Of a DNA stretch of 64,000 nucleotides, positions 14,711 to 56,080 are shown piece by piece. The stretch comes from Escherichia coli (lineage in GTDB: Bacteria > Pseudomonadota > Gammaproteobacteria > Enterobacterales > Enterobacteriaceae), in NCBI RefSeq assembly GCF_036507355.1, contig NZ_AP027877.1. One strand, given 5' to 3'. The stretch's first letter is position 1. Each line of letters starts with the position of its first letter. Position numbers and translations under genes: made by a program. Below the pieces are notes generated by a model. That model had not been told where the DNA came from. It was given only the letters and a program-made list of their open reading frames with translations, and ran no database searches.

Positions 14711-14786
14711 TGGCTCCTCTGACTGGACTCGAACCAGTGACATACGGATTAACAGTCCGCCGTTCTACCGACTGAACTACAGAGGA
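14711..14786 (-). tRNA. asnV: tRNA-Asn (GUU)
   Basis: 76-nt exact tRNA-Asn sequence (reverse complement), ends in CCA. Confidence 0.97.
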
Positions 14787-18826: not shown

Positions 18827-18881
18827 GGTGATGCTGCCAACTTACTGATTTAGTGTATGATGGTGTTTTTGAGGTGCTCCA

Positions 18882-30078: not shown

Positions 30079-30179
30079 GTGTGTCTCCTGTTCCATACAA
30101 TTACCGCACATCCGATAGTATGTCACAGGAATGTGAAACAAAAGTGTAAGGCGAAGATCGGATGATCTTCGCCAGGCTA

Positions 30180-31496: not shown

Positions 31497-31587
31497 AATG
31501 ATCCTGTTTGTACTGTCTTTTTATAATTAGTATGGAAAAGGTAACTCACATTGCCGTCGATCTATAAACTGAATCGCCACGGATAAT

Positions 31588-32400: not shown

Positions 32401-32456
32401 CCGACAGAGCAGGCGAACAGGCCAGCAACAGGTGTTGTCACGGATAAAGGCGTACC

Positions 32457-32741
32457 TCAGTCGGACAGCTTTGCGAAGTACGCCGCGGCTTTTTTTAATA
32501 TGTCCCGTTCGTCGGTAACCCGCTTCAGCTCTTTCTGGAGACGGCGGATCTCGGCCTGAGCATCTGACTGTTCTTTATTAGCGGAAGAATCCGGACCGTA
32601 CTTCTTTATCCAGGCGTAAAGGCTGTGGGTGGTGATATCGAGACGTGTTGCAACGCTGGCAACAGAATAACCGCGATCAACAACCTGTTTGACTGCTTCA
32701 ATTTTAAACTCTTCGGGATAACGCTTACCGCTCATGGGCAC
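32457..32741 (-). CDS. IS3-family transposase OrfA (HTH)
   Basis: 94-aa ORF with HTH and leucine-zipper-like C-terminus typical of IS3 OrfA. Confidence 0.85.
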   Translation of the reverse strand: MPMSGKRYPEEFKIEAVKQVVDRGYSVASVATRLDITTHSLYAWIKKYGPDSSANKEQSDAQAEIRRLQKELKRVTDERDILKKAAAYFAKLSD

Positions 32742-32798
32742 CTCTCTTTAAGCCATCTTAAATGACTCTGAGGTGTCTGTTAAACCCGTGGCGATTCA

Positions 32799-35114
<2,316 letters not shown>

Positions 35115-35427
35115 GCTTACCTTCCCTGAACGAGCTAACATAAATGCGCCCTTTCTAGCACAGCGAAAAAATGTAAATCCTGATAGCAATATGATTGAAA
35201 ATTAATAACTTTTCGTTAGGCAGTTTTGGGTGTGAGTTGCAAGAGGGGAGACTACTGAATAACTCAAGTTTTATAATCGAGGGGAAAATGGTGATGGCGT
35301 TCATAGCAAAACGCCCTCAACCATAAAGGTCGAGGGCGCTTAAGATGTTAAAAACCCGCTATCCGTTAAAAAACAATGTTCAACTAAGGTCAGTGACATT
35401 GCACTAAAAAAGCGAATTTTTAGAATT

Positions 35428-35603: not shown

Positions 35604-36401
35604 TTAATGAACATTCGTCGCCGAAAACGAGTCTGTATCATTAGCGTGATGCAGTCTCTGCAAAGGATCTTGTTGATAAAATTGGCAGAAACGTTGCCAC
35701 AATGAAGGGAAACGAGGAGCAAAAAGTTCTGGGGCGCTAAAGAAATATTCAGAAAGTACGGCAAAACATTCAGCAGGATCACTGGCAGCATAAGCATCAA
35801 TGCTCGCCGCATTCTCGCCAACCAATTCGATTTCTTCCTGAATGTTGTTCATTGCAGCATGAAGATCGTGTTCCCAGCCAGCAACCTCACGCAACGGAAT
35901 AAAGGGAACTCCGCTGGCGCGATCGCCGTTACGGGTGTCCAGCTTATGAGCGACTTCATGAATAATCAGGTTAAAACCAGAAGCATCAAAAGAATCTTGT
36001 ATATCCAACCAGTTCAAAACGATAGGCCCTTGCTGCCAGCTCTGACCTGACTGAACAATACGTTGGTTATGCACCAGACCGATATCGTCTTCCCATTCAT
36101 CATCGACCACAAATGGCGCAGGATAAATTAAGACTTCATGAAAACCATACAGCCATTCCAGTCCTAACTCCAGAACGGGTAGGCAAAATAGAAGTGCTAT
36201 CCGGCAGCTTCTTAATGAATCCAGTTCAAAGCCCTGTAAAGGAACAAGCCGCTTTTGCTGTAAAAAACGTTCGGCAAGAGTGACTAATTTGCTTTGTTCC
36301 TGTTCCGTCAGACACGTTAAAAGGGGGATCGATAGTGCTTCCTGCCAGGGAAGGGCAGTTTGATGTGCTGATTCTTGTACTTTCCAGGGCCACTTAATCA
36401 T
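35604..36401 (-). CDS. mtfA: Mlc titration factor A (zinc aminopeptidase-like)
   Basis: 265 aa from MIKWPWK; HEVAH zinc motif. Confidence 0.9.
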
Positions 36402-36494
36402 CGTTTTGCTCGCAAACTCGTCACTTGAACAAAATTGCACGGACAGGGACTGTTAAAATGCCAAATTTCCTGGCATCATGGCAACCATCTGAAC

Positions 36495-36584
36495 GGAGAG
36501 ATGCCGGAGCGGCTGAACGGACCGGTCTCGAAAACCGGAGTAGGGGCAACTCTACCGGGGGTTCAAATCCCCCTCTCTCCGCCA
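36495..36584 (+). tRNA. serU: tRNA-Ser (CGA)
   Basis: 90-nt sequence GGAGAGATGCCGGAGCGGCTGAACGG...CTCTCCGCCA with long variable arm. Confidence 0.95.
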
Positions 36585-37153
36585 CTTTATCAATGACTTA
36601 TCTCCCGACTTCCCGCCTTGCTTTTCCTAAACAGAACAATCGTAGAATATTCTTGAAGGGTTAGATCGTCACTGTTTTCTGTTCGATACTGTGACATTCA
36701 GCACTTGATTCGCTATGGATCTGACAGGAAGCTTTCGAGCGAAAATGTGCAGTTATTCAGTCGTTTTCTTATCGCTCACCATTATTCTTTTAGACATTCA
36801 TCCTATGAAACTGCCGCAAAGTTGGTGGTGGGAACTGAAGTTGCGTAGAGAAGGGGTCAATAATTAAGTCAAAAAAGGAACGCGGCCGTCAGATTAAAGC
36901 CGCGGGACAAAGTCCATAATTTCCAAGAGTTGTTGAATTTCCCAGCTTTTTTGAAAGCCTTTGTATCATACTAACAAGTAAAAAAGGTTTAAATACCAAA
37001 ATTAACCTGTATTTTTGATAAGTCTTACCATTGTACGATTTACACAGTTTCTGCTCCTCCTTGTTGATAGTGGAAAGGGTGCATTGTGCACTTGCGTAAA
37101 CATTTATGACGCGTTGATGTCCATGGTTCACATTTCCTTGTCAGGGGATCGAC

Positions 37154-37684
37154 TTATTTGCGGCGAGGCATCATTCGTAACAGAGTATTATCTTTCTGAA
37201 TGTAGTGATGAAAGAGTGCTGCGCCAGCGTGAGCTGCGATTAAAAAGTAACCTATATTTGCCCAGGTTTCGTGAATATTTTTTATCAGTGCTTTAATTTC
37301 GCTGTTTGGGGTAACAAAGGGAGACACATTGAAACCAAGGAAACTCCACGATTTTCCACTGTAAGCCATCAAAGCAATCCCCAGCAGAGGAAGTGCAAGG
37401 AAGGTTATATAAAGCATGATGTGCATTAGCGAAGCCGCTTTCATTTGCCAGGCAGGTGGCGGTGGCACAATAGAAGGACCACTATAACGGTGTTTTATAA
37501 TCAGGCGTGGAAACATTAACACCCAAACGAATATACCCGCATTGTAATGTGTTTCTCGCATCAGCAGATAAGTACTACTACCTTTAGGAAACCAGCCACG
37601 GAGTTCCATCGCGGCATAGGTTATTGCAACGAAAAGCAGCGTTATCCAATGTAAATAAATTTGAGTTTTTGAGAATCGGTTCAT
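37154..37684 (-). CDS. yodB: Cytochrome b561 homologue
   Basis: 176 aa from MNRFSKTQ; four TM helices with conserved His. Confidence 0.85.
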   Translation of the reverse strand: MNRFSKTQIYLHWITLLFVAITYAAMELRGWFPKGSSTYLLMRETHYNAGIFVWVLMFPRLIIKHRYSGPSIVPPPPAWQMKAASLMHIMLYITFLALPLLGIALMAYSGKSWSFLGFNVSPFVTPNSEIKALIKNIHETWANIGYFLIAAHAGAALFHHYIQKDNTLLRMMPRRK

Positions 37685-38026
37685 TTTTGTAGCTCCTGTA
37701 ATTTTCACAGTCAAGCTATCCCACGAACCTTAAAAATTCCTTATACAGATGTGGTTTTAAGAATTTGTTATTTAAAAAATTGATAGTGCATATTGTAACC
37801 AGCCAATATAAGCAATGGCGTGAGCACAGGTATCTTTCTCTGTTGGCCGTATTGTGTATGGAATCCGTTATTGGTTAACTCAATGCGGGTTAGCTTATTA
37901 ATATACAGACACGTCATAGTGATGAGCGTGTCTGTAGCTAGCTTGCGTTCAGTGGCGTTTGTGGATGGACCAGTGGCAGTTATGATGACTTACTAAAGCG
38001 GCATCGAGGCGTTATCATGAGAATAC

Positions 38027-38698
38027 TCAATGAGACATCATTTCCTCGACCACTTCTTCGCTACTCAACTGATATGGATAATACGTTGGCCAGTTTTCCA
38101 TTTCATTTAATAAAGATTGCTGTGAATCATTACCCATAAAAATGTGAAAATGAGATGATTTTCGTGGTGCAATTATATGATCGCTAAATTGTATATATTT
38201 AGGGGCTTTGCTTTCAGGATCTTTACATTCGAATAAGTAACGAACGCCTTTCTTGCCTGATTTATAGGTGAGTATTTTGTATCCATCGTAATCATATTTA
38301 CAGGATGTTGTTTCATTATTTCTATGGAATTCAACAATGCCGTCCTCAATGCCAATCATCTCGATATCTGTTGCATAACCTTTGTGATAATAATCTTTAA
38401 TTTCAGCAAATGTTTTAGTTTTATCTGCATCCGCTTTCTTCTGAAAGACGGGGTCAAGTTTGCCACTTTGCAGTAAAGGATAAACGGATTGCCAGACTCC
38501 ATCCCAGTCACTGAGCGTTCGGTTTTGTACATTGGCATCATCAAAAACACCATTAGCAGCTTTTTGTTCGACCTCTGTTAAGGGTTTGCCGTGTGAGTGA
38601 TGACCATGCGAAAAGGCAGGAGCGCTAACAATAAAGACACCTAAAGCAACAGCCAGTTTGTGAAGACGAATCGCCAAAACAGTTTCCTCCAGAGTCAT
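38027..38698 (-). CDS. zinT: Periplasmic zinc/cadmium-binding protein
   Basis: His-rich N-terminus (HGHHSHG) after signal peptide; start ATG 38698 or TTG 38677. Confidence 0.9.
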
Positions 38699-38713
38699 TG
38701 TATATGATGTGTA

Positions 38714-38730
38714 ATGTTATATTGTAACAT
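38714..38730. promoter_or_regulatory. Putative Zur box in zinT promoter
   Basis: Palindrome atgttata-t-tgtaacat resembling Zur operator, 16 bp upstream of zinT start. Confidence 0.6.
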
Positions 38731-38865
38731 ATGACAAAATGCAACAACTCTTAGGAGATGAGAGCATAGTTTTCTCAGGTGTACTTATCTATCTTATTGA
38801 AATAAAATGAATTATGTTGATAATTTGAGGTTGATGACAAACGAAACATAACCTGATGTGATCTG

Positions 38866-38903
38866 CGTAGGCCGGATAGGGCGCTCGCGCCGCATCCGGC
38901 AGG
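38866..38903. repeat. REP (repetitive extragenic palindromic) element
   Basis: gtaggccggatagggcgctcgcgccgcatccggcagg, typical REP consensus. Confidence 0.6.
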
Positions 38904-38933
38904 GATAACGCGTACTTTGTCGGCAATATGAAG

Positions 38934-39569
38934 TTATAGAGATAATTTGTTGTGAACCTGCTTGCGTAACCGGTTGAAAAAGGAAAGCAACTTCTTATAC
39001 CGTAAGGCTAAAAGCAGTACCGCCAGCCCAGCGTAGATGAGTGGCTGCGGTGAAATAATCTTCACTGACCACAAATAATGTATTGGGGCCAGGATCGCGA
39101 CAAGATAGACGAAGTTATGCAACTGTTGCCAGTGCTTGCCGAGTTTTCGCTGCATCGCCTGGGTTGAAGTGAACGCTAAAGCAAGCAAAATTACCCAGCT
39201 GATAATACCTAACGTTAAATAAGGCCGGGTAATTAACTCCTTACCTAATAACGCCAGATTATTCACGCCCAGCTCCAGCAATGCGTAACTTGTTAAATGC
39301 AGTGTCGCCCAGGCAAAGCACCATAATCCTAACAGGCGGCGAGTGCGTATCAATAACGGCTGTTTTGCGTAGCGTGCCATAGGTGTGATTAACAAGGTCG
39401 CCAGCAAAAATTTCAGTGCAGTGCGACCGGTAAAATGCTGAATATCTTTCACCGGATCGGCACCCAGTCCACCGTGATTGATCGCCCAGACCAGCCAGAG
39501 AAACGGCAACAATCCGGCAAGATGCAGGCAAACTTTCAGCCATGTCACCTGTTTTGCTGTCAGACGCAT
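38934..39569 (-). CDS. msrQ: Methionine sulfoxide reductase haem-binding subunit
   Basis: 211-aa membrane protein downstream of msrP. Confidence 0.9.
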
Positions 39570-40580
<1,011 letters not shown>

Positions 40581-40682
40581 TCACACTTTTTTGTCGTTAG
40601 CCAGCAAGAGCCGTTTACTGTTAATCTGTCAGGGAGTGTCCTCCCTAACAGTAGCAGAGATCTGCTTTTACATATTTATGCA

Positions 40683-41096
40683 TTAACTGCCACGATAGGT
40701 TGAATACCCATATTGGCTAAGTAATAAAGGCACATGATAATGCTCGTTCACTTTATTAATATGAAATTCAACGGGGATCTCAGGGAAGAAACTTTCAAGA
40801 TTTTGTTTCTTGAAATAGTCCCCGGTTTTAAATACGACACGGTAATCGCCCGTAGTTGCAGTTTGCTCGGGCCACAGTGCCTTAATTCGTCCATCCTTAT
40901 CTGTTTTGGCGGTATTAAGTTGTAACCAGCCGTTGTCCGCTTTCTTTTCAAGAGTGACTGTCACGTCGGCAGCGGGTTTTCCTGTTTGCTGGTTCAAAAT
41001 GTGCACGCTAAGAATGTTTTGTTGTGCAGCATAGACCAAAGAAGGTAATGAAAATGCAGCCGTTACTACGGAGAGTACTAAATAACGCTTTAACAT
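40683..41096 (-). CDS. hiuH: 5-hydroxyisourate hydrolase (transthyretin-like)
   Basis: 137 aa, signal peptide, C-terminal YRGS motif. Confidence 0.9.
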
Positions 41097-41228
41097 GTTT
41101 ATATCCTTGTCATGTGAATGAGTTTTGAGGATAGCGAAAAAGCGTCCAGGGTAACCTTACAGCAGCATTACAATTTTGTAATGAACCAGGCTGTTTCTAT
41201 AACATATGATTTATGGCATATTATTTTC

Positions 41229-41900
41229 ATGAAGATTTTACTTATTGAAGATAATCAAAGGACCCAGGAGTGGGTAACGCAGGGGCTTTCCGAAGCGGGT
41301 TATGTCATTGATGCCGTTTCTGATGGCAGAGATGGGCTTTATCTTGCGCTGAAGGATGATTATGCATTGATCATTCTGGATATTATGCTTCCGGGTATGG
41401 ATGGCTGGCAGATCTTACAAACGTTAAGAACAGCAAAGCAAACCCCTGTTATTTGCCTTACTGCAAGGGATTCTGTCGATGACAGAGTCAGAGGGCTGGA
41501 CAGTGGGGCAAATGATTATCTGGTAAAACCTTTTTCATTTTCTGAGTTGCTGGCAAGGGTTCGGGCACAATTAAGGCAACATCACGCTTTGAATTCAACA
41601 TTAGAAATCAGCGGCTTAAGAATGGACTCTGTTAGTCAAAGTGTGAGCAGGGACAATGTCAGTATTACACTGACGCGCAAGGAGTTTCAGTTACTTTGGC
41701 TACTGGCCTCCAGAGCTGGCGAAATTATACCCAGAACGGTTATTGCGAGTGAAATTTGGGGAATCAACTTTGATAGTGATACCAATACGGTGGATGTCGC
41801 CATTCGCAGGCTCCGCGCAAAAGTTGATGATCCTTTTCCTGAAAAGCTAATTGCCACAATCCGGGGGATGGGGTATTCATTCGTAGCGGTAAAAAAATAA
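41229..41900 (+). CDS. hprR: OmpR-family response regulator
   Basis: 223 aa from MKILLIEDNQ; receiver plus winged-helix domain. Confidence 0.9.
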   Translation: MKILLIEDNQRTQEWVTQGLSEAGYVIDAVSDGRDGLYLALKDDYALIILDIMLPGMDGWQILQTLRTAKQTPVICLTARDSVDDRVRGLDSGANDYLVKPFSFSELLARVRAQLRQHHALNSTLEISGLRMDSVSQSVSRDNVSITLTRKEFQLLWLLASRAGEIIPRTVIASEIWGINFDSDTNTVDVAIRRLRAKVDDPFPEKLIATIRGMGYSFVAVKK

Positions 41901-43258
41901 TGAAAAGATTATCTATAACCGTCCGTTTAACCTTGCTTTTTATATTGCTGCTGTCTGTTGCTGGCGCCGGAATTGTCTGGACTCTCTATAATGGCCTGGC
42001 AAGTGAGTTGAAATGGCGCGATGATACAACACTCATTAACCGGACAGCGCAGATCAAGCAGTTGTTAATTGATGGGGTAAATCCAGATACGTTACCTGTA
42101 TACTTTAACCGGATGATGGATGTTAGTCAGGATATCTTGATCATTCATGGTGATAGCATCAATAAAATTGTTAACCGGACAAATGTCAGTGATGGCATGT
42201 TAAATAACATACCTGCTAGTGAGACAATCAGTGTAGCTGGCATTTACAGAAGCATTATTAATGATACAGAGATAGATGCTTTACGAATTAATATTGATGA
42301 AGTTTCGCCATCATTAACGGTTACTGTGGCTAAATTGGCTTCAGCCAGACATAACATGCTTGAACAGTATAAAATCAATAGCATTATAATTTGCATTGTC
42401 GCCATTATACTGTGCTCAGTATTAAGTCCGCTGTTAATCCGAACGGGGTTACGAGAGATCAAAAAGTTGAGTGGTGTAACGGAAGCGCTGAATTATAACG
42501 ATAGCCGAGAGCCTGTTGAGGTTAGCGCATTACCGAGAGAACTAAAACCTCTTGGGCAGGCGTTGAATAAAATGCATCATGCTTTAGTCAAAGATTTTGA
42601 GCGTCTAAGTCAGTTTGCTGACGATCTCGCTCATGAACTTAGAACGCCAATTAATGCATTACTGGGTCAGAATCAGGTTACGCTCAGTCAAACCAGAAGT
42701 ATCGCTGAATATCAAAAAACAATTGCCGGAAACATTGAAGAGCTGGAAAATATTTCGCGGTTAACAGAGAACATACTGTTTCTTGCCAGGGCAGATAAAA
42801 ACAATGTTTTGGTGAAGCTGGACTCGCTTTCTCTCAATAAGGAAGTCGAAAATTTGTTGGACTATCTTGAATATCTTTCAGACGAGAAAGAGATTTGCTT
42901 TAAGGTCGAGTGCAATCAGCAAATCTTTGCGGATAAAATTTTACTGCAACGAATGTTATCGAATCTTATTGTTAACGCTATTCGATATTCGCCAGAAAAA
43001 TCGCGTATTCATATAACCAGTTTTCTTGATACCAACGGATCTCTTAATATTGATATCGCCAGCCCTGGAACGAAAATTAATGAGCCTGAAAAACTCTTCC
43101 GTAGATTTTGGCGGGGAGATAATTCGCGTCATTCCGTAGGTCAGGGACTAGGCCTTTCTTTAGTCAAAGCGATTGCCGAATTACATGGGGGAAGTGCTAC
43201 GTATCACTATCTCAATAAGCATAATGTGTTCCGGATTACGTTGCCGCAAAGAAATTAA
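41900..43258 (+). CDS. hprS: Sensor histidine kinase
   Basis: 452 aa; two TM helices, H-box (LAHELRTPIN) and ATPase domain. Confidence 0.9.
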   Translation: MKRLSITVRLTLLFILLLSVAGAGIVWTLYNGLASELKWRDDTTLINRTAQIKQLLIDGVNPDTLPVYFNRMMDVSQDILIIHGDSINKIVNRTNVSDGMLNNIPASETISVAGIYRSIINDTEIDALRINIDEVSPSLTVTVAKLASARHNMLEQYKINSIIICIVAIILCSVLSPLLIRTGLREIKKLSGVTEALNYNDSREPVEVSALPRELKPLGQALNKMHHALVKDFERLSQFADDLAHELRTPINALLGQNQVTLSQTRSIAEYQKTIAGNIEELENISRLTENILFLARADKNNVLVKLDSLSLNKEVENLLDYLEYLSDEKEICFKVECNQQIFADKILLQRMLSNLIVNAIRYSPEKSRIHITSFLDTNGSLNIDIASPGTKINEPEKLFRRFWRGDNSRHSVGQGLGLSLVKAIAELHGGSATYHYLNKHNVFRITLPQRN

Positions 43259-43365
43259 CATAGGGCTTCAGTACGCCATAAATTAACCGTGAAAAAACGC
43301 AGCCACGTCGTTAATACTAACGCGGCTGCGATTGATTATGCGCTTACATTAAAACGTAACAGGGA

Positions 43366-44217
43366 TTAACCCGCGTAAGCTGCCAGCATTTCCTGCGCCG
43401 CCAGTTTACCCAACGCATTCGCTGCGAAAGGACTGTCGCCGGTGAGAAGTTTACGGTCCTTATGTACTCGCCCGGTGATGTCGTCATTAATGATGTTCAT
43501 GCCCATTTTCTTCAGTTCTTCGCCGAAGTACCAGGTGAGATGACCCGGCATATAGCCAATCTCTGGCGTTTGTTTGTCTGCGGCGTCTGGGAATGCGCAA
43601 ATGGAATAACCATTCAGTGGGTTATCGCCGTGGCGAAGCGCCAGAAAAGCCGCCGGGCCGTGGCAAAGGGAGATAACAAAACGGTCATTTTTGATTGCCC
43701 ACTGTAAAGCGGCAGCTACGTCCTGGCTTTCAGGTAAACCAATAAGTGCGCCATGACCACCAGGAACAAAGATTGCTGCATATTCGCTATCAGCGTTGAG
43801 GCTGGCGACAACCTCCGCGAGTTTCTTCGGATTGCGGAACAACGATTTATGCTGCTCAAAGAATGGCATTACTTTTTCATCTTTGTGCGGCATAGCCCAG
43901 TATTCAAACTTGGTCATCAGACCGGAAATGGTCGCCACTTCGAATTCGAAACCTGCAGCATGGAGATGATACAACGGCAGCAACGTTTCAATCGGATGGT
44001 TACCGGTCGAGAACAGTTTTCCGTTATCGGTCGGCAAATAACGTTCGTCCGCGGCGATCACCAGAATTTTATGTTTACCGCGATACGGTTTTGGATAGTC
44101 CACGCCATCAAGATCAGAGACAGGACTGGTATATTGGCTAAGCGAATATTCTGAAGGGAAGAATGCATTATCTTCAGCAATATCGACCTGCGGATTTTTA
44201 CTTGTTTGAACAGTCAT
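43366..44217 (-). CDS. hchA: Hsp31 glyoxalase / protein deglycase
   Basis: 283-aa DJ-1/PfpI-family protein with catalytic Cys (ISLCHGPAA). Confidence 0.95.
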   Translation of the reverse strand: MTVQTSKNPQVDIAEDNAFFPSEYSLSQYTSPVSDLDGVDYPKPYRGKHKILVIAADERYLPTDNGKLFSTGNHPIETLLPLYHLHAAGFEFEVATISGLMTKFEYWAMPHKDEKVMPFFEQHKSLFRNPKKLAEVVASLNADSEYAAIFVPGGHGALIGLPESQDVAAALQWAIKNDRFVISLCHGPAAFLALRHGDNPLNGYSICAFPDAADKQTPEIGYMPGHLTWYFGEELKKMGMNIINDDITGRVHKDRKLLTGDSPFAANALGKLAAQEMLAAYAG

Positions 44218-44808
44218 AGTGTATTCCTTATTGTTGCTTAGTTAGGGTAGTCACTATATTTGCGACTGAGCTGGTCGCTATTTTTAACCAGGCTAGAAAA
44301 TTGAGTCAATATATCGAAAGCGGTAGTCGGCGGGTGTAAGTATGTAATGATGATGCTGCACTGGTGTTGAATATTATTCACGCCAAATTTTCCTTATTGA
44401 GCAACGTCGTCGCAAGTGGCCTCAATGATTTTAGACCATTATCAAAGGTACGGGGCGGCGGGGAGAGATTTAGTGCTGTGGAATATTGTGGTGCTGATGA
44501 ATATTTATATCCAGGATTGGCAGAGAAAAAGCTTTTTTCATGCACTATTTTTGCAAATATTTCTATATGGGAGGCGGTTTTGTTGCAGATTAATTCATAA
44601 AGAAATGCATTTGGGTCTTGGTTTGAAGAGTAGCTGGTTGATGTTATTGTGCCAGGAGGTGCAGGATAAGGGGCTGTATCGATATGCTTTGGCAATTGCG
44701 CGTGCCGCAGAGGGAGATGAAATGCCAATAAAAAAGCCTGAGTTCGATGAGGGACGAACTCAGGCTAGTGTTAAGTTTTACAGTAACACGCCGCAGCGAG
44801 TTGGCTGA

Positions 44809-45996
44809 TTAGAACTGGTAGACTAAGCCCACAGCAACGATATCATCGGTAGCGATGCCGTTTTCTTTGTAGAAGTCGTCGTCGTTGTCCAGCAGGTTGA
44901 TTTTGTAATCAACATAAGTGGACATGTTTTTGTTGAAGTAGTAGGTCATACCAATATCAACATATTTAACCAGATCTTTGTTGGTGTAATGATGATTACC
45001 CTGGCTGTCGAAGTTATCACTATTTACACCGCCTAAATCCTTACCTTTAGATTGCAGGTAAGCGATGGACGGGCGCAGACCGAAGTCGAACTGATACTGA
45101 GCAACAACTTCAAAGTTTTGGGTTTTGTTAGCGATGGCATCAGCATCACCGTAACCAGTCATGTTACGGGTTTCAGCATACATAGCTGCTAAGTAAACGT
45201 TATTAGCGTCGTATTTAGCACCAACGGTCCATGCTTCTGCTGTTTCACCGCCAGCAGTTGCATCGAAGCGATCTCCATAACGAGTGTTATGAGTACCTTT
45301 GTGAACCTGATTGTCGGTACGGTCAGAGTTAGAGTAAGCAGCGCCCAGACTTAAACCAAAGTCAAAGTCATAGGAAGTGGACATACCGTAACCGTCGCCG
45401 TTCTCTTTAGCAAGTTTACGTCCATTACCGTTACCTGAACCTTCTTGATCAAATAATCCGCTTTTCTCGTTGTTACCCTGATACTGGAGTGCAAAGTTCA
45501 GACCATCAACTTGACCAAAGAAACCATTGTTACGATAGGTTGCTACGCTGTTAGCACGACCGTTCATGAAGTTGTCAGCGCCAGCATAGGTATCTCCACC
45601 AAATTCTGGCAGCATATCGGTCCATGCTTCTACGTCATATACGACACCGTAGTTACGACCATAGTCGAAAGTACCATTCTGACCAAAGCCGAAACCTGCA
45701 AATGCCAGACGCGTTGCGGTATTACCCTTGTCGCTTTCAGGACCGTTTGCGCCAATGTTAAATTCCCACTGACCATAACCAGTGAACTGGTCAGCGATCT
45801 GGGTTTCACCTTTGAAACCGATACGGGCATATGACATGTCGCCATCACTGCCAGAGTCATCAGAGAAGTAGTGCAGACCCGCTACTTTTCCGTACAAATC
45901 CAGTTTATTGCCATCTTTATTATAGACTTCAGCCGCATTTGCTGCGCCAGCAACTAATAACGCCGGGACCAGCATTGCCAGAACTTTTCTTTTCAT
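44809..45996 (-). CDS. yedS: OmpC/OmpF-family outer-membrane porin, apparently intact
   Basis: 395 aa from [21 protein letters not shown]; C-terminal ...VGLVYQF; uninterrupted reading frame. Confidence 0.8.
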
Positions 45997-46315
45997 TATG
46001 TATTCCCTTGTGATTATAATCTTCATGAATATATCAATAAGTGCCGTTATCCAAAAAAAAGCACATTTGGATACTATTCTATGAAGTTCATTTTATTTTA
46101 AAGATTACATGTAACAAATGTATTTAAAAGACTTCAAAATGTTTCTAATCTATTTAATATGATTCATAATTATGAATTCTAAATATAAATATTCATGAAA
46201 ATTATAAGTATATATCAATATGTTATGAGTTGAGCGGAAAGATAGGGAGTATCAATGATTGTTACGCCAAACACCTGGTGTGATCACGCGCACATTAATG
46301 AAGGCATAAAAAAAA

Positions 46316-46332
46316 GCCGGCATCATGCCGGC
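46316..46332 (-). terminator. Stem-loop terminator, possible 3' end of a small RNA between yedS and yedR
   Basis: gccggcatcatgccggc palindrome flanked by A-run (plus strand) and T-run (minus strand). Confidence 0.45.
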
Positions 46333-46562
46333 CCAAAAAATATAAACAAGACGATAAAAGGCTAATAACGGAAGCATCATGACACAGAATAATAAAAAGG
46401 TATAATTGTAATCAGTGCTAATATATTGATTGAATGAATTAATAAAGCCGATATCAAAGATAAATAAAATCGCTCAAAACGATTTTTCCTGTATTCACTG
46501 CCGTTGCGCAAAAATTATCTATTTGTTCAAAAAATGAGTGAGTCTTGACTGGCTCATTCAAT

Positions 46563-46928
46563 GTGGAAAAATGTGACTTTTATCACATAATAGTACTAAG
46601 TCTGAATTTTCCGGGTTATCTCAAAATGGAATACGGTTCGACAAAGATGGAAGAGAGACTCTCTCGCAGCCCTGGCGGCAAACTGGCTTTGTGGGCTTTC
46701 TATACATGGTGTGGCTATTTCGTCTGAGCAATGGCGCGTTACATCTGGGTGATGAGCCGGATCCCCGATGCCCCCGTGTCGGGATTTGAAAGCGATTTAG
46801 GCTCTACCGCGGGAAAGTGGTTAGGGGCACTGGTCGGATTTTTATTTATGGCTCTGGTCGGGGCATTGTTAGGCAGCATTGCCTGGTACACCCGACCTCG
46901 TCCCGCACGTAGCAGACGCTATGAATAA
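46563..46928 (+). pseudogene. yedR: Inner-membrane protein YedR interrupted by in-frame TGA
   Basis: Two same-frame ORFs separated only by TGA at 46725..46727; GTG 46563 to stop 46928 gives 121 codons. Confidence 0.55.
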
Positions 46929-46967
46929 AAACTGCTAAGGTTGCGACTCTTTGGCAACGGAGCGCGT

Positions 46968-47663
46968 ATGGACTTACAACACTGGCAGGCACAGTTCGAA
47001 AACTGGTTGAAAAACCATCATCAGCACCAGGACGCGGCCCATGACGTGTGTCATTTTCGCCGCGTCTGGGCTACGGCACAGAAGCTGGCGGCAGATGATG
47101 ACGTCGATATGCTGGTGATTTTAACCGCCTGTTATTTTCACGATATTGTGAGCCTGGCGAAAAATCATCCGCAAAGGCAGCGTTCTTCAATCCTGGCGGC
47201 AGAAGAGACGCGTCGCCTGCTCCGTGAAGAGTTCGTGCAATTTCCGGCGGAGAAAATTGAGGCCGTTTGTCATGCAATTGCCGCTCACAGTTTCAGCGCG
47301 CAAATTGCCCCCTTAACAACGGAAGCTAAAATCGTCCAGGATGCGGATCGGCTGGAAGCCCTGGGAGCGATTGGCCTGGCGCGCGTGTTTGCCGTTTCAG
47401 GGGCATTGGGCGTGGCGCTGTTTGATGGCGAAGATCCGTTCGCACAGCATCGCCCGCTTGATGATAAACGTTACGCGCTGGATCATTTCCAGACTAAGTT
47501 GCTGAAGCTACCGCAAACCATGCAAACCGTAAGAGGCAAGCAGCTGGCGCAGCACAACGCGCAATTTTTAGTCGAGTTTATGGCGAAGCTCAGTGCCGAA
47601 CTGGCGGGGGAGAATGAAGGTGTCGATCACAAGGTGATAGATGCGTTTTCACCTGCGGGCTGA
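46968..47663 (+). CDS. yedJ: HD-domain phosphohydrolase
   Basis: 231 aa from MDLQHWQ; HD motif (CYFHDIV). Confidence 0.85.
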
Positions 47664-47729
47664 GCGCGTGGCCCTAAATGGCTGTAATTATGTTAACCTG
47701 TCGGCCATCTCAGATGGCCGGTTAAATCT

Positions 47730-49148
47730 ATGCAGGAAAATATATCAGTAACCGATTCATACAGCACCGGGAATGCCGCACAGGCAATGCTGGAGAAACT
47801 GCTGCAAATTTATGATGTTAAAACGCTGGTGGCGCAGCTTAATGGTGTGGGTGAGAATCACTGGAGCGCGGCAATTTTAAAACGTGCGCTGGCGAATGAC
47901 TCGGCATGGCACCGTTTAAGTGAGAAAGAGTTCGCCCATCTGCAAACGTTGTTACCCAAACCACCGGCACATCATCCGCATTATGCGTTTCGCTTTATCG
48001 ATCTATTTGCCGGAATTGGCGGTATCCGTCGCGGTTTTGAATCGATTGGCGGACAGTGCGTGTTTACCAGCGAATGGAACAAACATGCGGTACGCACTTA
48101 TAAAGCCAACCATTATTGCGACCCGGCGACGCATCATTTTAATGAAGATATCCGCGACATCACCCTCAGCCATAAAGAAGGCGTGAGTGATGAGGCGGCG
48201 GCGGAACATATTCGTCAACACATTCCTGAACACGATGTTTTACTGGCCGGTTTCCCTTGTCAGCCATTTTCGCTGGCTGGCGTATCGAAAAAGAACTCGC
48301 TCGGGCGGGCGCACGGTTTTGCCTGCGATACTCAGGGCACGCTGTTCTTTGATGTGGTGCGCATTATCGACGCGCGTCATCCGGCGATGTTTGTGCTCGA
48401 AAACGTCAAAAACCTGAAAAGCCACGACCAGGGTAAAACGTTCCGCATCATCATGCAGACGCTGGACGAACTGGGCTATGACGTGGCTGATGCAGAAGAT
48501 AACGGGCCGGACGATCCGAAAATCATCGATGGTAAACATTTTCTGCCGCAGCACCGTGAACGCATCGTGCTGGTGGGTTTTCGTCGCGATCTTAATCTGA
48601 AAGCCGATTTTACTCTGCGTGATATCAGCGAATGTTTCCCTGCACAGCGAGTGACGCTGGCGCAGCTGCTGGACCCGATGGTCGAGGCGAAATATATCCT
48701 GACGCCGGTGCTGTGGAAGTACCTCTATCGTTATGCGAAAAAACATCAGGCGCGCGGTAACGGCTTCGGTTATGGAATGGTTTATCCGAACAATCCGCAA
48801 AGCGTCACGCGTACGCTGTCTGCGCGTTATTACAAAGATGGCGCGGAAATTTTAATCGATCGCGGCTGGGATATGGCCACGGGTGAGAAAGACTTTGACG
48901 ATCCGCTGAATCAGCAACATCGTCCACGTCGGTTAACGCCTCGGGAATGCGCGCGCTTAATGGGTTTTGAAGCGCCGGGAGAAGCGAAATTCCGCATTCC
49001 GGTTTCGGACACTCAGGCCTATCGCCAGTTCGGTAACTCGGTGGTCGTGCCGGTCTTTGCCGCGGTGGCAAAACTGCTTGAGCCAAAAATCAAACAGGCG
49101 GTGGCGTTGCGTCAGCAAGAGGCACAACATGGCCGACGTTCACGATAA
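47730..49148 (+). CDS. dcm: DNA cytosine-5 methyltransferase
   Basis: 472 aa; motifs FAGIGG and PCQPFS. Confidence 0.95.
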
Positions 49149-49599
49149 GGCCACTCGCAGCAAAAATATGCGCGCGATTGCCACGCGTGATACGGCGATT
49201 GAGAAGCGCCTCGCCAGTCTGTTAACCGGGCAGGGCCTGGCGTTTCGCGTTCAGGACGCCAGTCTGCCCGGACGCCCGGATTTTGTCGTTGATGAATATC
49301 GCTGCGTGATATTTACCCATGGCTGCTTCTGGCATCATCATCACTGCTATCTGTTTAAAGTGCCTGCGACTCGAAGCGAGTTCTGGCTGGAGAAGATAGG
49401 TAAAAATGTTGAGCGCGATCGCCGCGATATCAGTCGCTTGCAGGAACTCGGCTGGCGCGTATTGATTGTCTGGGAGTGCGCGTTACGTGGGCGCGAGAAG
49501 CTGACGGATGAAGCGCTTACCGAGCGTCTGGAAGAGTGGATCTGCGGCGAAGGTGCCAGCGCGCAGATCGACACGCAGGGGATACATTTACTCGCTTGA
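49129..49599 (+). CDS. vsr: Very-short-patch repair endonuclease
   Basis: 156 aa from [14 protein letters not shown]; overlaps 3' end of dcm. Confidence 0.95.
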
Positions 49600-50508
49600 T
49601 GCGTCCTGAATAACTGGCGCAACTACGGGTTTTGCCGGGAAGAGATATTTTCCCAACGTGACCAGTACCACCGCGAAGACAATTACGCCGAGCGCCAGCC
49701 ATTCAATCTTCGACAGCGTCTCTCCGCCCAGTCCCGTACCCAGCAAGACCGCGACCACCGGGTTAACGTAGGCGTAGCTGGTGGCGAGAGCCGGACTGAC
49801 ATTACGGATTAAATACATATAAGCGTTGATGGCGATAATCGAACCAAACAGCGCCAGATAGCCGACCGCAAGGAAGCCTGAAAGGGAAGGGAGCGCCGTC
49901 AGTTTTTCACCCGCAATCATCGACGCGATCATTAACACCACGCCTGCCGCCAGCATCTCAATCGCACCCGCCATCATCCCTACAGGTAAGGTAATGCGCG
50001 AGCCATAAACTGAGCCAAACGCCCAGCTAATCGAGCCGATTAAAATCAGAATCGCGCCCCACGGATTGCCGCTTAAATTTCCACCGCTATTGAGCATGAT
50101 GATTCCGGCAAGCCCAATGGCAATACCCACCCATTCCAGTTTGCGCGTTTTAATGCCAAACAGGCGGCTGAAGCACAGGGTAAAGAGGGGCACGGTTGCA
50201 ACCACTACGGCGGCGATGCCGGAAGGAACATTTTGATGTTCGGCAACCGTCACCATGCCATTACCGACAGCCAGCAATAACAGGCCAATCAGCGCGGCAT
50301 TGAGCAGCGGACGTAGCGGGGGGAGTTTGTGTCCGCGCAGTAGCAAAAATGCCAGCAATAAAATACCGGCTACCAGGAATCGAACGCCCGCCATCATTAA
50401 CGGAGGCCAGCTTTCCACGCCAATCCGAATGACAAAATAGGTTGAGCCCCAAATGATATACAACGCAAACAGCGCGCCAAAAAGCGGTAACAACTGGCGG
50501 AAACGCAT
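49588..50508 (-). CDS. yedA: EamA-family (DMT) transporter
   Basis: 306-aa 10-TM protein. Confidence 0.85.
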   Translation of the reverse strand: MRFRQLLPLFGALFALYIIWGSTYFVIRIGVESWPPLMMAGVRFLVAGILLLAFLLLRGHKLPPLRPLLNAALIGLLLLAVGNGMVTVAEHQNVPSGIAAVVVATVPLFTLCFSRLFGIKTRKLEWVGIAIGLAGIIMLNSGGNLSGNPWGAILILIGSISWAFGSVYGSRITLPVGMMAGAIEMLAAGVVLMIASMIAGEKLTALPSLSGFLAVGYLALFGSIIAINAYMYLIRNVSPALATSYAYVNPVVAVLLGTGLGGETLSKIEWLALGVIVFAVVLVTLGKYLFPAKPVVAPVIQDASSE

Positions 50509-50680
50509 AATCCCTCACGGTGGAAATAAAAAGGTGGTTCATAGTAAACGTGAAAATCATTCTGCTGGCGAGAGATATAATTGCACTTGATTGTTAAAAA
50601 AATGTTGACCTGTGAAGCAAGTATCAGAGCTGCCGTTTTTGCTTCATACTTACACCCTTCAACAATAAAAATGAGAGGGA

Positions 50681-51598
50681 ATGCTTTTGGCCGGGAGTAG
50701 TTTACTGACGTTGCTCGATGATATCGCCACACTGCTGGACGATATCTCCGTGATGGGCAAACTGGCGGCGAAGAAAACCGCCGGTGTATTAGGGGATGAC
50801 TTATCGCTCAATGCGCAACAAGTTTCAGGCGTGCGGGCCAACCGGGAACTTCCCGTGGTCTGGGGCGTGGCGAAAGGATCGCTGATTAATAAAGTGATTC
50901 TGGTGCCACTGGCGCTGATCATCAGTGCGTTTATCCCGTGGGCGATTACGCCTCTGTTGATGATTGGTGGCGCGTTTCTCTGCTTTGAAGGGGTAGAGAA
51001 AGTGCTGCATATGCTGGAGGCGCGTAAACATAAAGAAGATCCGGCGCAGAGTCAGCAGCGTCTGGAGAAGCTGGCGGCGCAGGATCCGCTGAAGTTTGAA
51101 AAGGACAAAATAAAAGGGGCGATTCGTACCGATTTTATATTGTCTGCCGAAATCGTCGCCATCACGCTGGGGATTGTGGCCGAAGCGCCGTTGCTTAATC
51201 AGGTGCTGGTGCTTTCAGGCATCGCGCTGGTAGTGACCGTGGGCGTCTACGGTCTGGTAGGGGTTATCGTTAAGATTGATGACCTGGGGTATTGGCTGGC
51301 GGAAAAATCCAGCGCGCTGATGCAGGCATTAGGTAAAGGGTTATTGATTATCGCGCCCTGGCTGATGAAAGCGTTATCGATTGTCGGCACGCTGGCGATG
51401 TTCCTCGTCGGCGGCGGGATTGTGGTACATGGTATTGCGCCGCTGCATCACGCCATTGAACATTTCGCCGGGCAGCAAAGTGCAGTGGTGGCGATGATAT
51501 TACCGACTGTTTTAAATCTGATTCTTGGATTTATCATCGGCGGCATCGTGGTGCTGGGAGTGAAAGCCGTAGCGAAAATGCGCGGTCAGGCACATTAA
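50681..51598 (+). CDS. yedI: DUF808 inner-membrane protein
   Basis: 305-aa ORF; synteny. Confidence 0.85.
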
Positions 51599-51676
51599 TA
51601 CTCGCACAGGCTATTATGCAAAATTCGCCATCTTCAACTAAGGTGAACAAGTTTCACTCGAAAAAAGGAGGCGAGT

Positions 51677-51859
51677 ATGAGCTTTATGGTTAGTGAGGAA
51701 GTTACGGTTAAAGAGGGCGGCCCGCGGATGATTGTCACTGGATACTCCAGCGGTATGGTTGAGTGTCGTTGGTATGACGGTTACGGGGTCAAGCGGGAAG
51801 CTTTTCATGAAACCGAGCTTGTTCCGGGGGAGGGGAGTCGTTCTGCGGAAGAAGTTTGA
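51677..51859 (+). CDS. yodC: Small protein YodC
   Basis: 60-aa ORF with SD; synteny. Confidence 0.8.
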   Translation: MSFMVSEEVTVKEGGPRMIVTGYSSGMVECRWYDGYGVKREAFHETELVPGEGSRSAEEV

Positions 51860-51875
51860 AAGGGAATCATTAACG

Positions 51876-51900
51876 CCAGGCCGGATCACATCCGGCCTGG
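51876..51900. terminator. Palindromic stem-loop after yodC (terminator or REP-like)
   Basis: ccaggccggat-cac-atccggcctgg perfect inverted repeat. Confidence 0.4.
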
Positions 51901-52029
51901 TGTGCCAATGCCTGAAATGAATGATAGTCGCGTCTTATCATGCCACCATTATAAAATTATCGCTGTTTTGCGGTACGCTATCGCCAGGTTATGCCAGAAT
52001 CATAAAAAAGCAGGTGGGGAGTCGTCAGG

Positions 52030-54555
<2,526 letters not shown>

Positions 54556-54734
54556 TTACCAGGATGATTCTCAAAACAGCACAAATTATCAAAGATGATT
54601 TTTTCGGGAGCGATCCCGCTGACGCCAGAGCCACCAAGGGGTGACGTGCGTCACATTTCTATTCATAAGTAGCGTTAATCATTCATATGGCGAATATTTT
54701 CTTGTCAGCGAAAAAAATTGCGGATAAGGTGATG

Positions 54735-54822
54735 AACACATCAGATTTCCTGGTGTAACGAATTTTTTAAGTGCTTCTTGCTTAAGCAAGTTTCATCCCG
54801 ACCCCCTCAGGGTCGGGATTTT
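54735..54822 (+). ncRNA. dsrA: DsrA small regulatory RNA
   Basis: AACACATCAGATTTCCTGGTGTAACGAATTTTTTAAGTGCTTCTTGCTTAAGCAAGTTTCATCCCGACCCCCTCAGGGTCGGGATTT matches DsrA including terminator hairpin. Confidence 0.9.
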
Positions 54823-54834
54823 TTTATTGTGCAT

Positions 54835-55062
54835 TCAACGATTCACTTCAGAGACGCTGAAGTCATGAATATCCAGTTCGAAGGCATCCGCCAATTCACG
54901 CCATGTATGATATTCACGTCCATCGACGCTAACGTGTTCAGAATCGTTCTGGCTGCGATGAACTTCGCTTTCGCTAATTTCATTGATCGCCGCCAGCAGG
55001 GCATCGACATCGACGCTGACCTCACGTTTTGCGGTATCGCTGTACTCTTTTGCGGTTTTCAT
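54835..55062 (-). CDS. yodD: Stress-induced small protein YodD
   Basis: 75 aa from MKTAKEYSDT. Confidence 0.8.
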   Translation of the reverse strand: MKTAKEYSDTAKREVSVDVDALLAAINEISESEVHRSQNDSEHVSVDGREYHTWRELADAFELDIHDFSVSEVNR

Positions 55063-55134
55063 CATCTTTCCTCGCAACCGTTACTCTGTTGTTGCCGCCA
55101 GTCGTTAAGTCCGCCTGGCATCTCTTAAGTATAG

Positions 55135-55413
<279 letters not shown>

Positions 55414-55456
55414 TCTAATTCAGCCTGACTGGTGGGAAACCACCAGTCAGAATGTG

Positions 55457-56080
55457 TTAGCGCATGTTGACAAAAATACCATTAGTCACATTATCCGTCA
55501 GTCGGACGACATGGTAGATAACCTGTTTATTATGCGTTTTGATCTTACGTTTAATATTACCTTTATGCGATGAAACGGTCTTGGCTTTGATATTCATTTG
55601 GTCGGAGATTTGAATGGTTCCCTGACCTGCCATCCACATTCGCAACATACTCGATTCGGTTCGGCTCAATGATAACGTCGGCATATTTAAAAACGAGGTT
55701 ATCGTTGTCTCTTTTTTCAGAATATCGCCAAGGATATCGTCGAGAGATTCCGGTTTAATCGATTTAGAACTTATCAATAAATTTTTTCTGACCAATAGAT
55801 ATTCATCAAAATGAACATTGGCAATTGCCATAAAAACGATAAATAACGTATTGGGATGTTGATTAATGATGAGCTTGATACGCTGACTGTTAGAAGCATC
55901 ATGGATGAAACAGTCCTCATTAATAAACACCACTGAAGGGCGCTGTGAATCACAAGCTATGGCAAGGTCATCAACGGTTTCAATGTCGTTGATTTCTCTT
56001 TTTTTAACCCCTCTACTCAACAGATACCCGGTTAAACCTAGTCGGGTGTAACTACATAAATCCATAATAATCGTTGACAT
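55457..56080 (-). CDS. rcsA: Capsule synthesis regulator RcsA (LuxR-type HTH)
   Basis: 207-aa ORF recognised as RcsA. Confidence 0.95.

Follow-up and report, generated by a model that had tools for sequence, protein, structure and literature searches.

In the micF–ompC and micC–ompN pairs, porin genes are linked to small RNAs directed against porins. The Salmonella porin OmpS1 is quiescent: it is repressed by H-NS and StpA, derepressed by LeuO and dependent on OmpR. Regulation of the E. coli porin gene yedS by MicF has reportedly been described, and Warner et al. 2013 (AAC 57:1935) are said to have implicated YedS in the carbapenem susceptibility of a clinical isolate that had a functional YedS. 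The small RNA RseX is 91 nt long and H-NS-repressed, and its targets are OmpA and OmpC and also fimB and ihfB (PMC8313858; PMC7648144). Control of fepA by RseX through the terminator loop has been described as well (PMC11979758). Native RseX was long undetectable in wild-type K-12 cells, and a band of approximately 91 nt was seen on the Northern blot in an hns mutant (PMC8313858).

The window, that is, the entire analysed stretch of 64,000 nucleotides from E. coli contig NZ_AP027877.1, very probably carries two known genes, yedS and rseX, which lie in tandem on the minus strand as independent transcription units. Since both genes were already known, the observation is correct but ordinary; it brings no new biology and confirms that K-12 is atypical at the yedS locus. 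Nothing was found that contradicts the identification of YedS or RseX.

The porin gene at the yedS locus

The gene order in the window is hprS-hchA-yedS-rseX-drpB(yedR)-yedJ-dcm, the same as in annotated E. coli records. In drpB, a TGG-to-TGA nonsense change was observed at position 46727. The yedS CDS occupies 44809..45996 on the minus strand, between hchA and rseX/drpB(yedR) and on the strand shared with rseX, and consists of 395 codons plus TAA encoding the precursor of a general (OmpC/OmpF-type) porin. The preliminary description had reported an uninterrupted 395-codon porin ORF at this locus, which was borne out by the ORF itself, the synteny, the alignment with OmpK37 and that with the NCBIfam porin OmpC model, unbroken over positions 1-368/368. 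The same description had allowed for an overlooked frameshift in the porin gene, but neither a frameshift nor an internal stop was found in the 1188 nt, and both the profile and the OmpK37 alignments were continuous. Counted from the first in-frame ATG, the minus-strand ORF extends over 44809..46026 and has 405 aa, a length also given for YedS in some database entries. The ATG at 46026 was rejected as the start, as it lacks a Shine-Dalgarno sequence, would place 10 extra residues before the canonical signal peptide and is not the one used by RefSeq. The start codon at 45996 (MKRKVL...) has a Shine-Dalgarno GGGA (46007..46004) 7 nt upstream, it is identical to that of the 1188-nt RefSeq CDS at the yedS locus of the closest genome, L001, and the resulting N-terminus agrees with OmpC in the porin alignment. 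Downstream of the gene, the terminator scan predicted an intrinsic terminator at 44735..44766 (minus strand) with a 12-bp stem followed by TTTTT. These sequence data support the reading of 44809..45996 as an intact OmpC/OmpF-family porin gene at the yedS locus.

The deduced protein matched Pfam PF00267 (Porin_1) with 470 bits (cutoff 23.7; residues 27-395, model 1-337/337) and NCBIfam NF007841 'porin OmpC', which is a 'subfamily' model and not an equivalog, with 540.7 bits (cutoff 484). Its top match among solved structures was OmpK37 (PDB 6v78, E=7e-145), aligned over residues 21-395. A signal peptide and a C-terminal Phe had been noticed earlier, and both can be read in the protein: a signal peptide of 21 residues (45934..45996, minus strand) ends at the predicted cleavage site ANA|AE, and the C-terminus is ...AVGLVYQF, of which V392-F395 are invariant in 17/17 aligned porins. 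Residues 9-22 are likewise invariant across all 17, genuine OmpC included, the mature chains in the PDB start at YedS residue 22, and the mature N-terminus, AEVYNK, fits the pattern AE(V/I)YNKDGNK. The loop-3 motif LPEFGGD, with the PEFGGD core, is at residues 129-135, and K37, R58, R96, R147, D121 and D127 are conserved in the 17-porin alignment and align to OmpK37. Because the AlphaFold2 model built from the 17-sequence alignment was poor (pLDDT 49, pTM 0.48) and unsuitable for a fold search, support for the predicted 16-stranded beta-barrel comes from full-length homology to solved porins only. YedS belongs to the OmpC/OmpF/PhoE family and would be a general-diffusion porin with 16 strands. 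Exported by the Sec pathway and cleaved at ANA|AE to a 374-residue mature protein, it would reach its place in the outer membrane with the aid of the BAM machinery, via the C-terminal ...VYQF signal. There it would probably form a water-filled channel constricted by loop 3 (PEFGGD) and the basic residues K16, R37, R75 and R126 (mature numbering).

The intergenic region upstream of the gene (45997..46544) was measured at 548 bp and 29.0% GC compared with 47.8% for the whole window, in agreement with the AT-rich region of about 550 bp described before. The part proximal to yedS, about 165 bp at 45997..46160 (minus strand), which contains the presumed leader and promoter, is approximately 90% conserved from Escherichia to Citrobacter amalonaticus, and the conservation does not continue farther upstream. 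Within this leader, the promoter scan detected a promoter-like TTGTTA-16-TAAAAT at 46117..46090, there is an alternative −10 box, TAGAAT, at 46081..46076, and phased GAAACA/AATACA/GTTACA motifs resembling OmpR boxes lie at 46145..46110 (all on the minus strand). The predicted start of yedS transcription is near 46083 or 46069. The 10-mer ACATTTTGAA is common to the yedS leader and the ompC upstream region, where it falls in the part that we take to be OmpR box C1; the local alignment of the two regions is otherwise weak. One common 10-mer and the phasing of the motifs are suggestive of an OmpR box in the leader, not demonstrative of it; OmpR may control yedS, and the leader may have a regulatory role. 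The gene stands behind a 29%-GC leader of a type silenced by H-NS, and its codon bias is only moderate. In all likelihood yedS is quiescent and encodes a minor porin that is made under certain conditions only; in this strain it would presumably be kept low by H-NS silencing. The gene, named 'yedS (ompS1)', was repressed upon sigma-E induction (PMC2731931).

The statement that yedS is a pseudogene in K-12 proved right: RefSeq flags the K-12 gene as 'frameshifted; internal stop', and in the alignment its codon 162 reads TAG and one nucleotide is missing near nt 663. The window copy has neither lesion. Ten of 13 complete E. coli genomes, sampled at even spacing along the match ranking, contained an intact yedS, the disrupted copies being those of K-12, YZ22PE106 and OkiPb01689. 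The gene was also intact in all six species representatives (6/6), so that intact copies span five Escherichia lineages and Citrobacter. The exact window protein is present on 557 public contigs, and it differs from WP_029396139.1 in 1 residue. Compared with alleles of E. coli, E. albertii, E. whittamii, Escherichia sp. and Citrobacter, dN/dS was 0.03-0.21 at dS values up to ~1, and yedS is kept intact by purifying selection. In E. coli as in its sister species the intact gene predominates, and therefore K-12 is the exception. Where YedS is intact, it bears on antibiotic resistance that depends on permeability: a minor porin could in principle alter beta-lactam entry in cells that have lost OmpC and OmpF.

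The alleles are highly diverse. The segment encoding the mature porin behaves like a swapped cassette, with 59-99% identity between alleles. On one side it adjoins the conserved leader and signal peptide and on the other the conserved 3′ end, and some cassette alleles are common to several Escherichia species. Because of this diversity, YedS is also relevant to surface variation.

The rseX gene and its predicted targets

The preliminary description had proposed that a minus-strand RNA of about 90 nt ending at a hairpin upstream of the porin gene would fit RseX, located between yedR and yedS. The Rfam search identified rseX (RF01401) at 46309..46398 on the minus strand with 97.7 bits, the gathering score being 50 (E=2.5e-13, model 1-94/94), and sequence comparison showed this segment to be 100% identical to K-12 and O157:H7; the 91-nt K-12 RNA corresponds to 46308..46398. 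The gene indeed lies between drpB(yedR) on one side and yedS on the other, at distances of 227 bp from drpB M22 and 312 bp from the yedS ATG, and is transcribed towards yedS. All yedS alleles examined, pseudogenes among them, had rseX some 310 bp upstream, and 18 other loci show the same arrangement. The core segments CUGUGUCAU and CGUUAUUAGCCUUUUAUCGUC are invariant in 7 species or strains.

The hairpin at 46316..46332 has the sequence GCCGGCATCATGCCGGC, as described, and it is a strong one; its supposed bidirectionality did not hold, because the scan found a terminator on the minus strand only and the continuation on the plus strand is CCAAAAAA. The terminator scan and the RNA fold placed the intrinsic terminator of RseX at 46308..46334 (minus strand), with a stem of GGGCCGGCA/UGCCGGCUU, a UGA loop and U8. 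At the DNA level this is a 9-bp GC-rich stem (46334..46314) followed by T8, and the U-tail is of the kind expected for an Hfq-binding 3′ end. A putative sigma-70 promoter was read from the sequence at 46405..46434 (minus strand), with a −10 box TACAAT (46410..46405) and a weak −35 box TTCAAT (46434..46429); as the latter fits at 3/6 positions only, the promoter scan missed it. A sigma-70 rseX promoter supported by 5′-RACE has been cited (PMC8313858). The expected start of the RNA is 46398, and on the plus strand there is a promoter-like site at 46379..46406. With a promoter and a strong terminator to itself, rseX would be transcribed separately from yedS. A 42-codon ORF overlapping rseX (46252..46380) was not accepted as a gene, since a Shine-Dalgarno sequence is absent, the ORF crosses the terminator and conservation downstream of the terminator is poor.

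RseX is an Hfq-dependent small RNA that down-regulates ompC and ompA by pairing with their mRNAs where translation is initiated, and in K-12 its own gene is silenced by H-NS/StpA. The duplex search was carried out with 24-nt windows; as ompC and ompA are outside the window, their target sequences came from other E. coli strains. The search recovered the known sites, with pairing of RseX nt 23-44 with ompC −14..+9, including a 14-bp run, and of nt 37-58 with ompA −30..−7, and both predicted sites fall in the invariant part of RseX, although duplex energies alone do not separate true targets from background. Whole-sequence duplexfold of RseX and leader gave long duplexes without meaning. The best RseX-yedS duplex, at −56..−33, had −14.8 kcal/mol, which equals the median of 47 background leaders, and thus gave no support for direct targeting of yedS by RseX. 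In Citrobacter this candidate site has A in place of G, and RseX shows no change that would compensate for it. The best duplex of MicF with the yedS leader had −9.3 kcal/mol and lent no support to targeting either.

Alternative readings of the locus

The RefSeq/PGAP name of the orthologous CDS, 'ompC: porin OmpC', together with the above-cutoff match to NF007841, would make the porin gene the OmpC of the strain itself. Such an assignment has hardly any probability, as NF007841 defines a subfamily only, the gene lies between hchA and drpB whereas the genuine ompC lies between apbE and micF/rcsD, the identity with genuine OmpC is 66%, and the best solved relative is OmpK37 rather than OmpC. Neither a position beside micF/rcsD nor near-identity to OmpC was found for YedS, and a median of 3 matching places per E. 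coli genome was obtained, therefore yedS is a paralogue. Hardly more credible is that 46309..46398 is a mere terminator or leader fragment of a neighbour and no small RNA gene of its own. The years during which native RseX escaped detection in wild-type cells (PMC8313858), the absence of rseX annotation from the RefSeq records and the single-sequence fold, which was no more stable than shuffles (z = −1.3), could be taken in that sense. Nevertheless, no minus-strand gene precedes rseX, as drpB is read in the opposite direction, and the hairpin is no terminator for plus-strand transcription; moreover, the window sequence is identical to the RNA seen by Northern analysis in the hns mutant, its non-terminator core is invariant across species and the Rfam score is high. 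A silent gene that happens to be intact here and is decaying as in K-12, without selected function, would account for the three disrupted copies, the AT-rich leader resembling an H-NS target, the only moderate codon bias (ENC 41 for yedS compared with 30 for ompC) and the undetectable native expression of the region in wild-type K-12 (PMC8313858). This is improbable in view of the low dN/dS at considerable dS, the strong conservation of the 165-bp leader, the intact copies across five Escherichia lineages and Citrobacter and the intact gene in most sampled strains. Considering these points, we favour two genuine and separately transcribed genes, a porin paralogue and a small RNA gene. As for annotation, yedS is the proper name rather than the ompC of RefSeq, and rseX should be annotated where the RefSeq records are blank.

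Of a different kind is the proposal that the two genes form one module, in which relief of H-NS repression would let RseX remove OmpC and OmpA and the untargeted YedS replace them, or in which RseX would regulate yedS directly. The tandem arrangement with its constant ~310-bp spacing, kept in all allele types of Escherichia and also in Citrobacter, speaks for it, as does the analogy with micF-ompC and micC-ompN. The strong terminator between rseX and yedS speaks against co-transcription, and rseX is unchanged where yedS is a pseudogene, while direct regulation is opposed by a duplex energy at the background median and by the uncompensated G to A change in Citrobacter. We regard the module as unlikely. 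Somewhat more doubtful still is its extended form, in which the locus is a fixed 'porin slot' for an exchangeable cassette, framed by rseX, the ~165-bp leader and the signal peptide on one side and by the 3′ end on the other, combined with the RseX/porin swap. If this were true, an antigenically different YedS replacing OmpC and OmpA would change permeability as well as recognition by phages or the immune system.

Comparison with known porins and RseX

The small RNA gene of the window agrees in sequence, position and orientation with RseX as known (RF01401; Douchin et al. 2006, cited in PMC8313858), and no difference was detected. Its pattern was absent from the Salmonella representatives in a scan of 100,044 species, thus the small RNA partner of yedS seems restricted to Escherichia and Citrobacter. 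The E. coli K-12 YedS (b1964-b1966) has the same position (hchA to rseX/drpB), signal peptide, N-terminal third and C-terminus as the window copy, with ~91% DNA identity of the loci over 2 kb; the window copy differs in having another central allele, in segments between ~nt 440 and ~nt 1060.

Among the paralogous and related porins, E. coli OmpC belongs to the same family, shares the PGAP name and is identical to YedS at 20 of the first 22 residues. It differs in its locus (apbE-ompC-micF-rcsD), in its much stronger codon bias and in being a target of RseX, whereas yedS has no convincing RseX site. The Klebsiella OmpK37, which presumably groups with E. coli OmpN and Salmonella OmpS2, has the same loop-3 motif and the same barrel strands over the whole mature protein. 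Its locus is different, however, and its mature form has 356 residues compared with 374 in YedS, which carries insertions at 232-243 (12 residues) and 324-333 (10 residues), in segments that vary between alleles. The best 120 matches in the homologue search with YedS were all from Escherichia and Shigella. Some annotations name the gene ompS1, database entries use 'outer membrane protein S1', and yedS has been equated with ompS1 (PMC2731931); orthology with the Salmonella OmpS1 is putative, being based on the naming in databases and in that paper only. It is worth noting that Salmonella OmpS1 and YedS are both minor OmpC-type porins encoded behind AT-rich regulatory regions (PMC4264507).

Locus and reading frame of the porin gene

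The porin gene is flanked on one side by hchA (43366..44217, minus strand) and hprS (41900..43258, plus strand), and on the other by drpB (yedR), yedJ and dcm, all on the plus strand. Since this order is that of annotated E. coli chromosomes, the gene is yedS despite its PGAP label 'ompC'. In RefSeq records, PGAP calls the yedS orthologue 'ompC: porin OmpC', thus such genomes carry two 'ompC' genes. The genuine ompC, however, sits between apbE and micF/rcsD, and YedS is only 66% identical to OmpC.

The ORF listing of the window gave a minus-strand ORF at 44809..46026, within which the ATG at 45996 (MKRKVL...) is the biologically sensible start. GGGA lies 7 nt upstream of it, and RefSeq uses the same start for the orthologous 1188-nt CDS of the closest complete genome. 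Read from 45996, yedS has 395 codons, and their uninterrupted frame, claimed in the preliminary description, was confirmed by end-to-end matches to Pfam Porin_1 (470 bits) and to the NCBIfam 'porin OmpC' subfamily model (540.7 bits against a cutoff of 484; model positions 1–368 of 368). YedS could also be aligned to solved porins over its whole mature length, the best being Klebsiella OmpK37 (6v78, E=7e-145). The signal peptide (21 residues, followed by AE) and the C-terminal Phe (...VYQF) are both present as described, along with the loop-3 motif PEFGGD and the conserved residues of the pore, both basic and acidic. As the porin matches run end to end and all expected porin features are there, yedS contains no overlooked frameshift. 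The K-12 gene differs in this respect: it is indeed a pseudogene, flagged 'frameshifted; internal stop' in RefSeq, and its alignment with the window revealed that codon 162 is TAG and that 1 nt is missing near nt 663, and its central segments represent a different allele from that of the window.

The small RNA gene rseX upstream of yedS

The RseX sRNA, proposed in the preliminary description, was identified at 46309..46398 on the minus strand by a full-length match to Rfam RF01401 (97.7 bits, E=2.5e-13; gathering score 50), which was still a top match when the whole window was scanned. Comparison with known rseX sequences was likewise positive, the window copy being 100% identical to those of K-12 and O157:H7. 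RefSeq records, one of MG1655 included, have no annotation under the match. The hairpin proposed at 46316..46332 is found at exactly this position as the palindrome GCCGGCATCATGCCGGC, and the RseX 3′-end consists of a 9-bp GC-rich stem followed by U8. Its description as bidirectional proved wrong, because the terminator scan called the site on the minus strand only and the sequence after the hairpin on the plus strand is CCAAAAAA. A −10 box, TACAAT, is located at 46410..46405 with the right spacing from the rseX 5′-end (46398); the −35 box is weak, and the promoter scan did not call this promoter.

According to published work, the 91-nt sRNA RseX down-regulates both OmpA and OmpC (PMC7648144). 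It escapes detection in wild-type cells, is derepressed in hns mutants and has fimB and ihfB as additional targets (PMC8313858); it also represses fepA via its terminator loop (PMC11979758). In a windowed duplex search, RseX nt 23–44 paired with ompC −14..+9 and nt 37–58 with ompA −30..−7, and these segments coincide with the RseX core that is invariant across species. When one genome from each of 100,044 species was scanned for the core pattern, it occurred only in E. coli, E. albertii, E. whittamii, two Escherichia sp. and Citrobacter amalonaticus. Rfam confirmed rseX in 6/6 of these species, and all six keep the order dcm-yedJ-drpB, rseX and full-length porin, with hchA too where the contig reaches it. 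Within E. coli, 4878 of 5426 complete genomes matched a 121-nt rseX query at megablast sensitivity, and every yedS allele fetched, pseudogenes included, has rseX about 310 bp upstream.

A near-consensus sigma-70-like site directed toward drpB (ATGACA-16-TATAAT, 11/12 positions) was noted on the plus strand at 46379..46406, identical in K-12. Its span takes in the first 20 nt of rseX, and the −10 boxes of the two overlap. The site could be a competitor of the rseX promoter or the source of an upstream transcript for drpB, or it may be a spurious AT-rich promoter. In place of the TGG (Trp) seen in eight comparison loci, the drpB gene itself (start at 46626 for M22 or 46647 for M29, stop at 46928) has TGA at 46725..46727. 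Its predicted product would stop after 33 residues (counted from M22) or 26 (from M29), without the last part of TMH1 and the whole of TMH2. The TGA could mark a true pseudogene or stem from a sequencing error. In E. coli FY26, drpB is interrupted by another nonsense mutation, W16* in M29 numbering, which RefSeq flags as 'internal stop'. DrpB is non-essential (PMC7648144).

Prevalence and variation of yedS, and other features of the window

An intact yedS is not unusual. Among 13 complete E. coli genomes taken at even steps along the similarity ranking, it was intact in 10 (352–404 aa) and disrupted in K-12, YZ22PE106 (frameshift) and OkiPb01689 (IS3-family insertion). The exact 395-aa YedS of the window is catalogued on 557 contigs, six of six further loci encoding it showed the same synteny, and its 90%-identity cluster has 1201 members. 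The best 120 homologues were all full-length and from Escherichia or Shigella, some of them named 'outer membrane protein yedS' or 'outer membrane protein S1'. Over 20 kb (36000..56000), the best match among the 5,426 complete E. coli genomes reaches only 99.0% identity, and loci encoding the identical YedS are 98.3–98.8% identical over 6 kb (42309..48496). The window may thus derive from Shigella or from an E. coli lineage that this genome set lacks. The dN/dS values of 0.03–0.21, obtained against alleles from E. coli and the other rseX-bearing species, show that yedS is under purifying selection. Codon bias is moderate (ENC 41 vs 30 for ompC), in keeping with a minor porin, or one expressed conditionally, and less so with a major porin.

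At the protein level, alleles in the yedS position are 1% to 41% different from that of the window (59–99% aa identity; 352–404 aa in E. coli). In comparison with the yedS locus of other E. coli strains, DNA identity stays at 96–100% from rseX through the leader to about nt 120 of the CDS, a stretch that includes the signal peptide and the first ~20 mature residues, falls to 20–85% in the mature-porin segment, and returns to 85–100% in the last ~60 nt and downstream. Given these sharp boundaries, the variation of the mature-porin segment resembles cassette-type replacement. E. albertii, E. whittamii and cryptic Escherichia clades have the same allele type as the window (95–99% aa). A locally diverged patch, where substitutions cluster and a 1-nt indel occurs in comparison with both the closest complete genome and K-12, lies downstream of the yedS terminator in the hchA–yedS intergenic region (44560..44690); the 44500–44749 bin has 19 and 17 differences, respectively, compared with 1–5 in bins over hchA.

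Elsewhere in the window, a 345-aa ORF at 17794..18831 (plus strand) is similar to reverse transcriptases of the defence type (NCBIfam Drt4 at 195 bits, under the cutoff of 450), and an EFASI RNA (Rfam RF02957, 112 bits) lies ~2.6 kb from it at 21470..21603 (minus strand); the two may belong to an accessory island near asn tRNA genes. The minus-strand region 28624..35189 looks like a fragmented large adhesin gene, our guess being yeeJ: the match of its 797-aa ORF to inverse-autotransporter adhesin models (IatC N-terminal domain and intimin-like) is confined to their N-terminal part, and three more same-strand ORFs follow (31588..32400, 30180..31496 and 28624..30234). The DsrA sRNA (54735..54821, plus strand; Rfam 102.5 bits) and four tRNA genes at 14714, 25220, 27041 and 35431 (Rfam 72.6 bits each), which we take to be asnT/U/V/W of the region, are known features.

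The yedS leader and comparison with known systems

The upstream region from the yedS start to 46544 is 548 bp long with 29.0% GC (47.8% for the window), in agreement with the AT-rich stretch of about 550 bp initially noted. The ~165 bp preceding the ATG (45997..46160, minus strand) are ~90% conserved from Escherichia to Citrobacter amalonaticus, far above the adjacent spacer and the porin itself (64% aa), and conservation does not extend farther upstream. The leader contains GAAACA/AATACA/GTTACA motifs with roughly 10-bp phasing and the 10-mer ACATTTTGAA, which also occurs upstream of ompC, presumably in OmpR box C1. From these phased motifs and the shared 10-mer, it is reasonable to infer OmpR control of yedS. 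MicF control of yedS was reportedly described by Warner et al. in 2013; in our windowed duplex search, neither RseX nor MicF paired with the leader beyond background. The conserved leader is likely OmpR- or sRNA-controlled.

The pseudogene status of YedS in K-12 and its functionality elsewhere, the position of RseX between yedS and yedR, and the H-NS silencing of the yedS/rseX region are already described, and the window contributes only one more intact yedS allele, itself already in databases. The best-supported reading is that of two independent, known genes, with YedS as a general-diffusion porin that is probably quiescent in laboratory conditions. This quiescence is suggested by the AT-rich leader, by the H-NS silencing published for 'RseX and surrounding areas' in K-12 (PMC8313858) and by a conditional analogy with ompS1. 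Salmonella ompS1 is repressed by H-NS/StpA and this repression is antagonized by LeuO (PMC4264507), an analogy that applies to yedS only if the naming 'yedS (ompS1)' in PMC2731931 denotes orthology.
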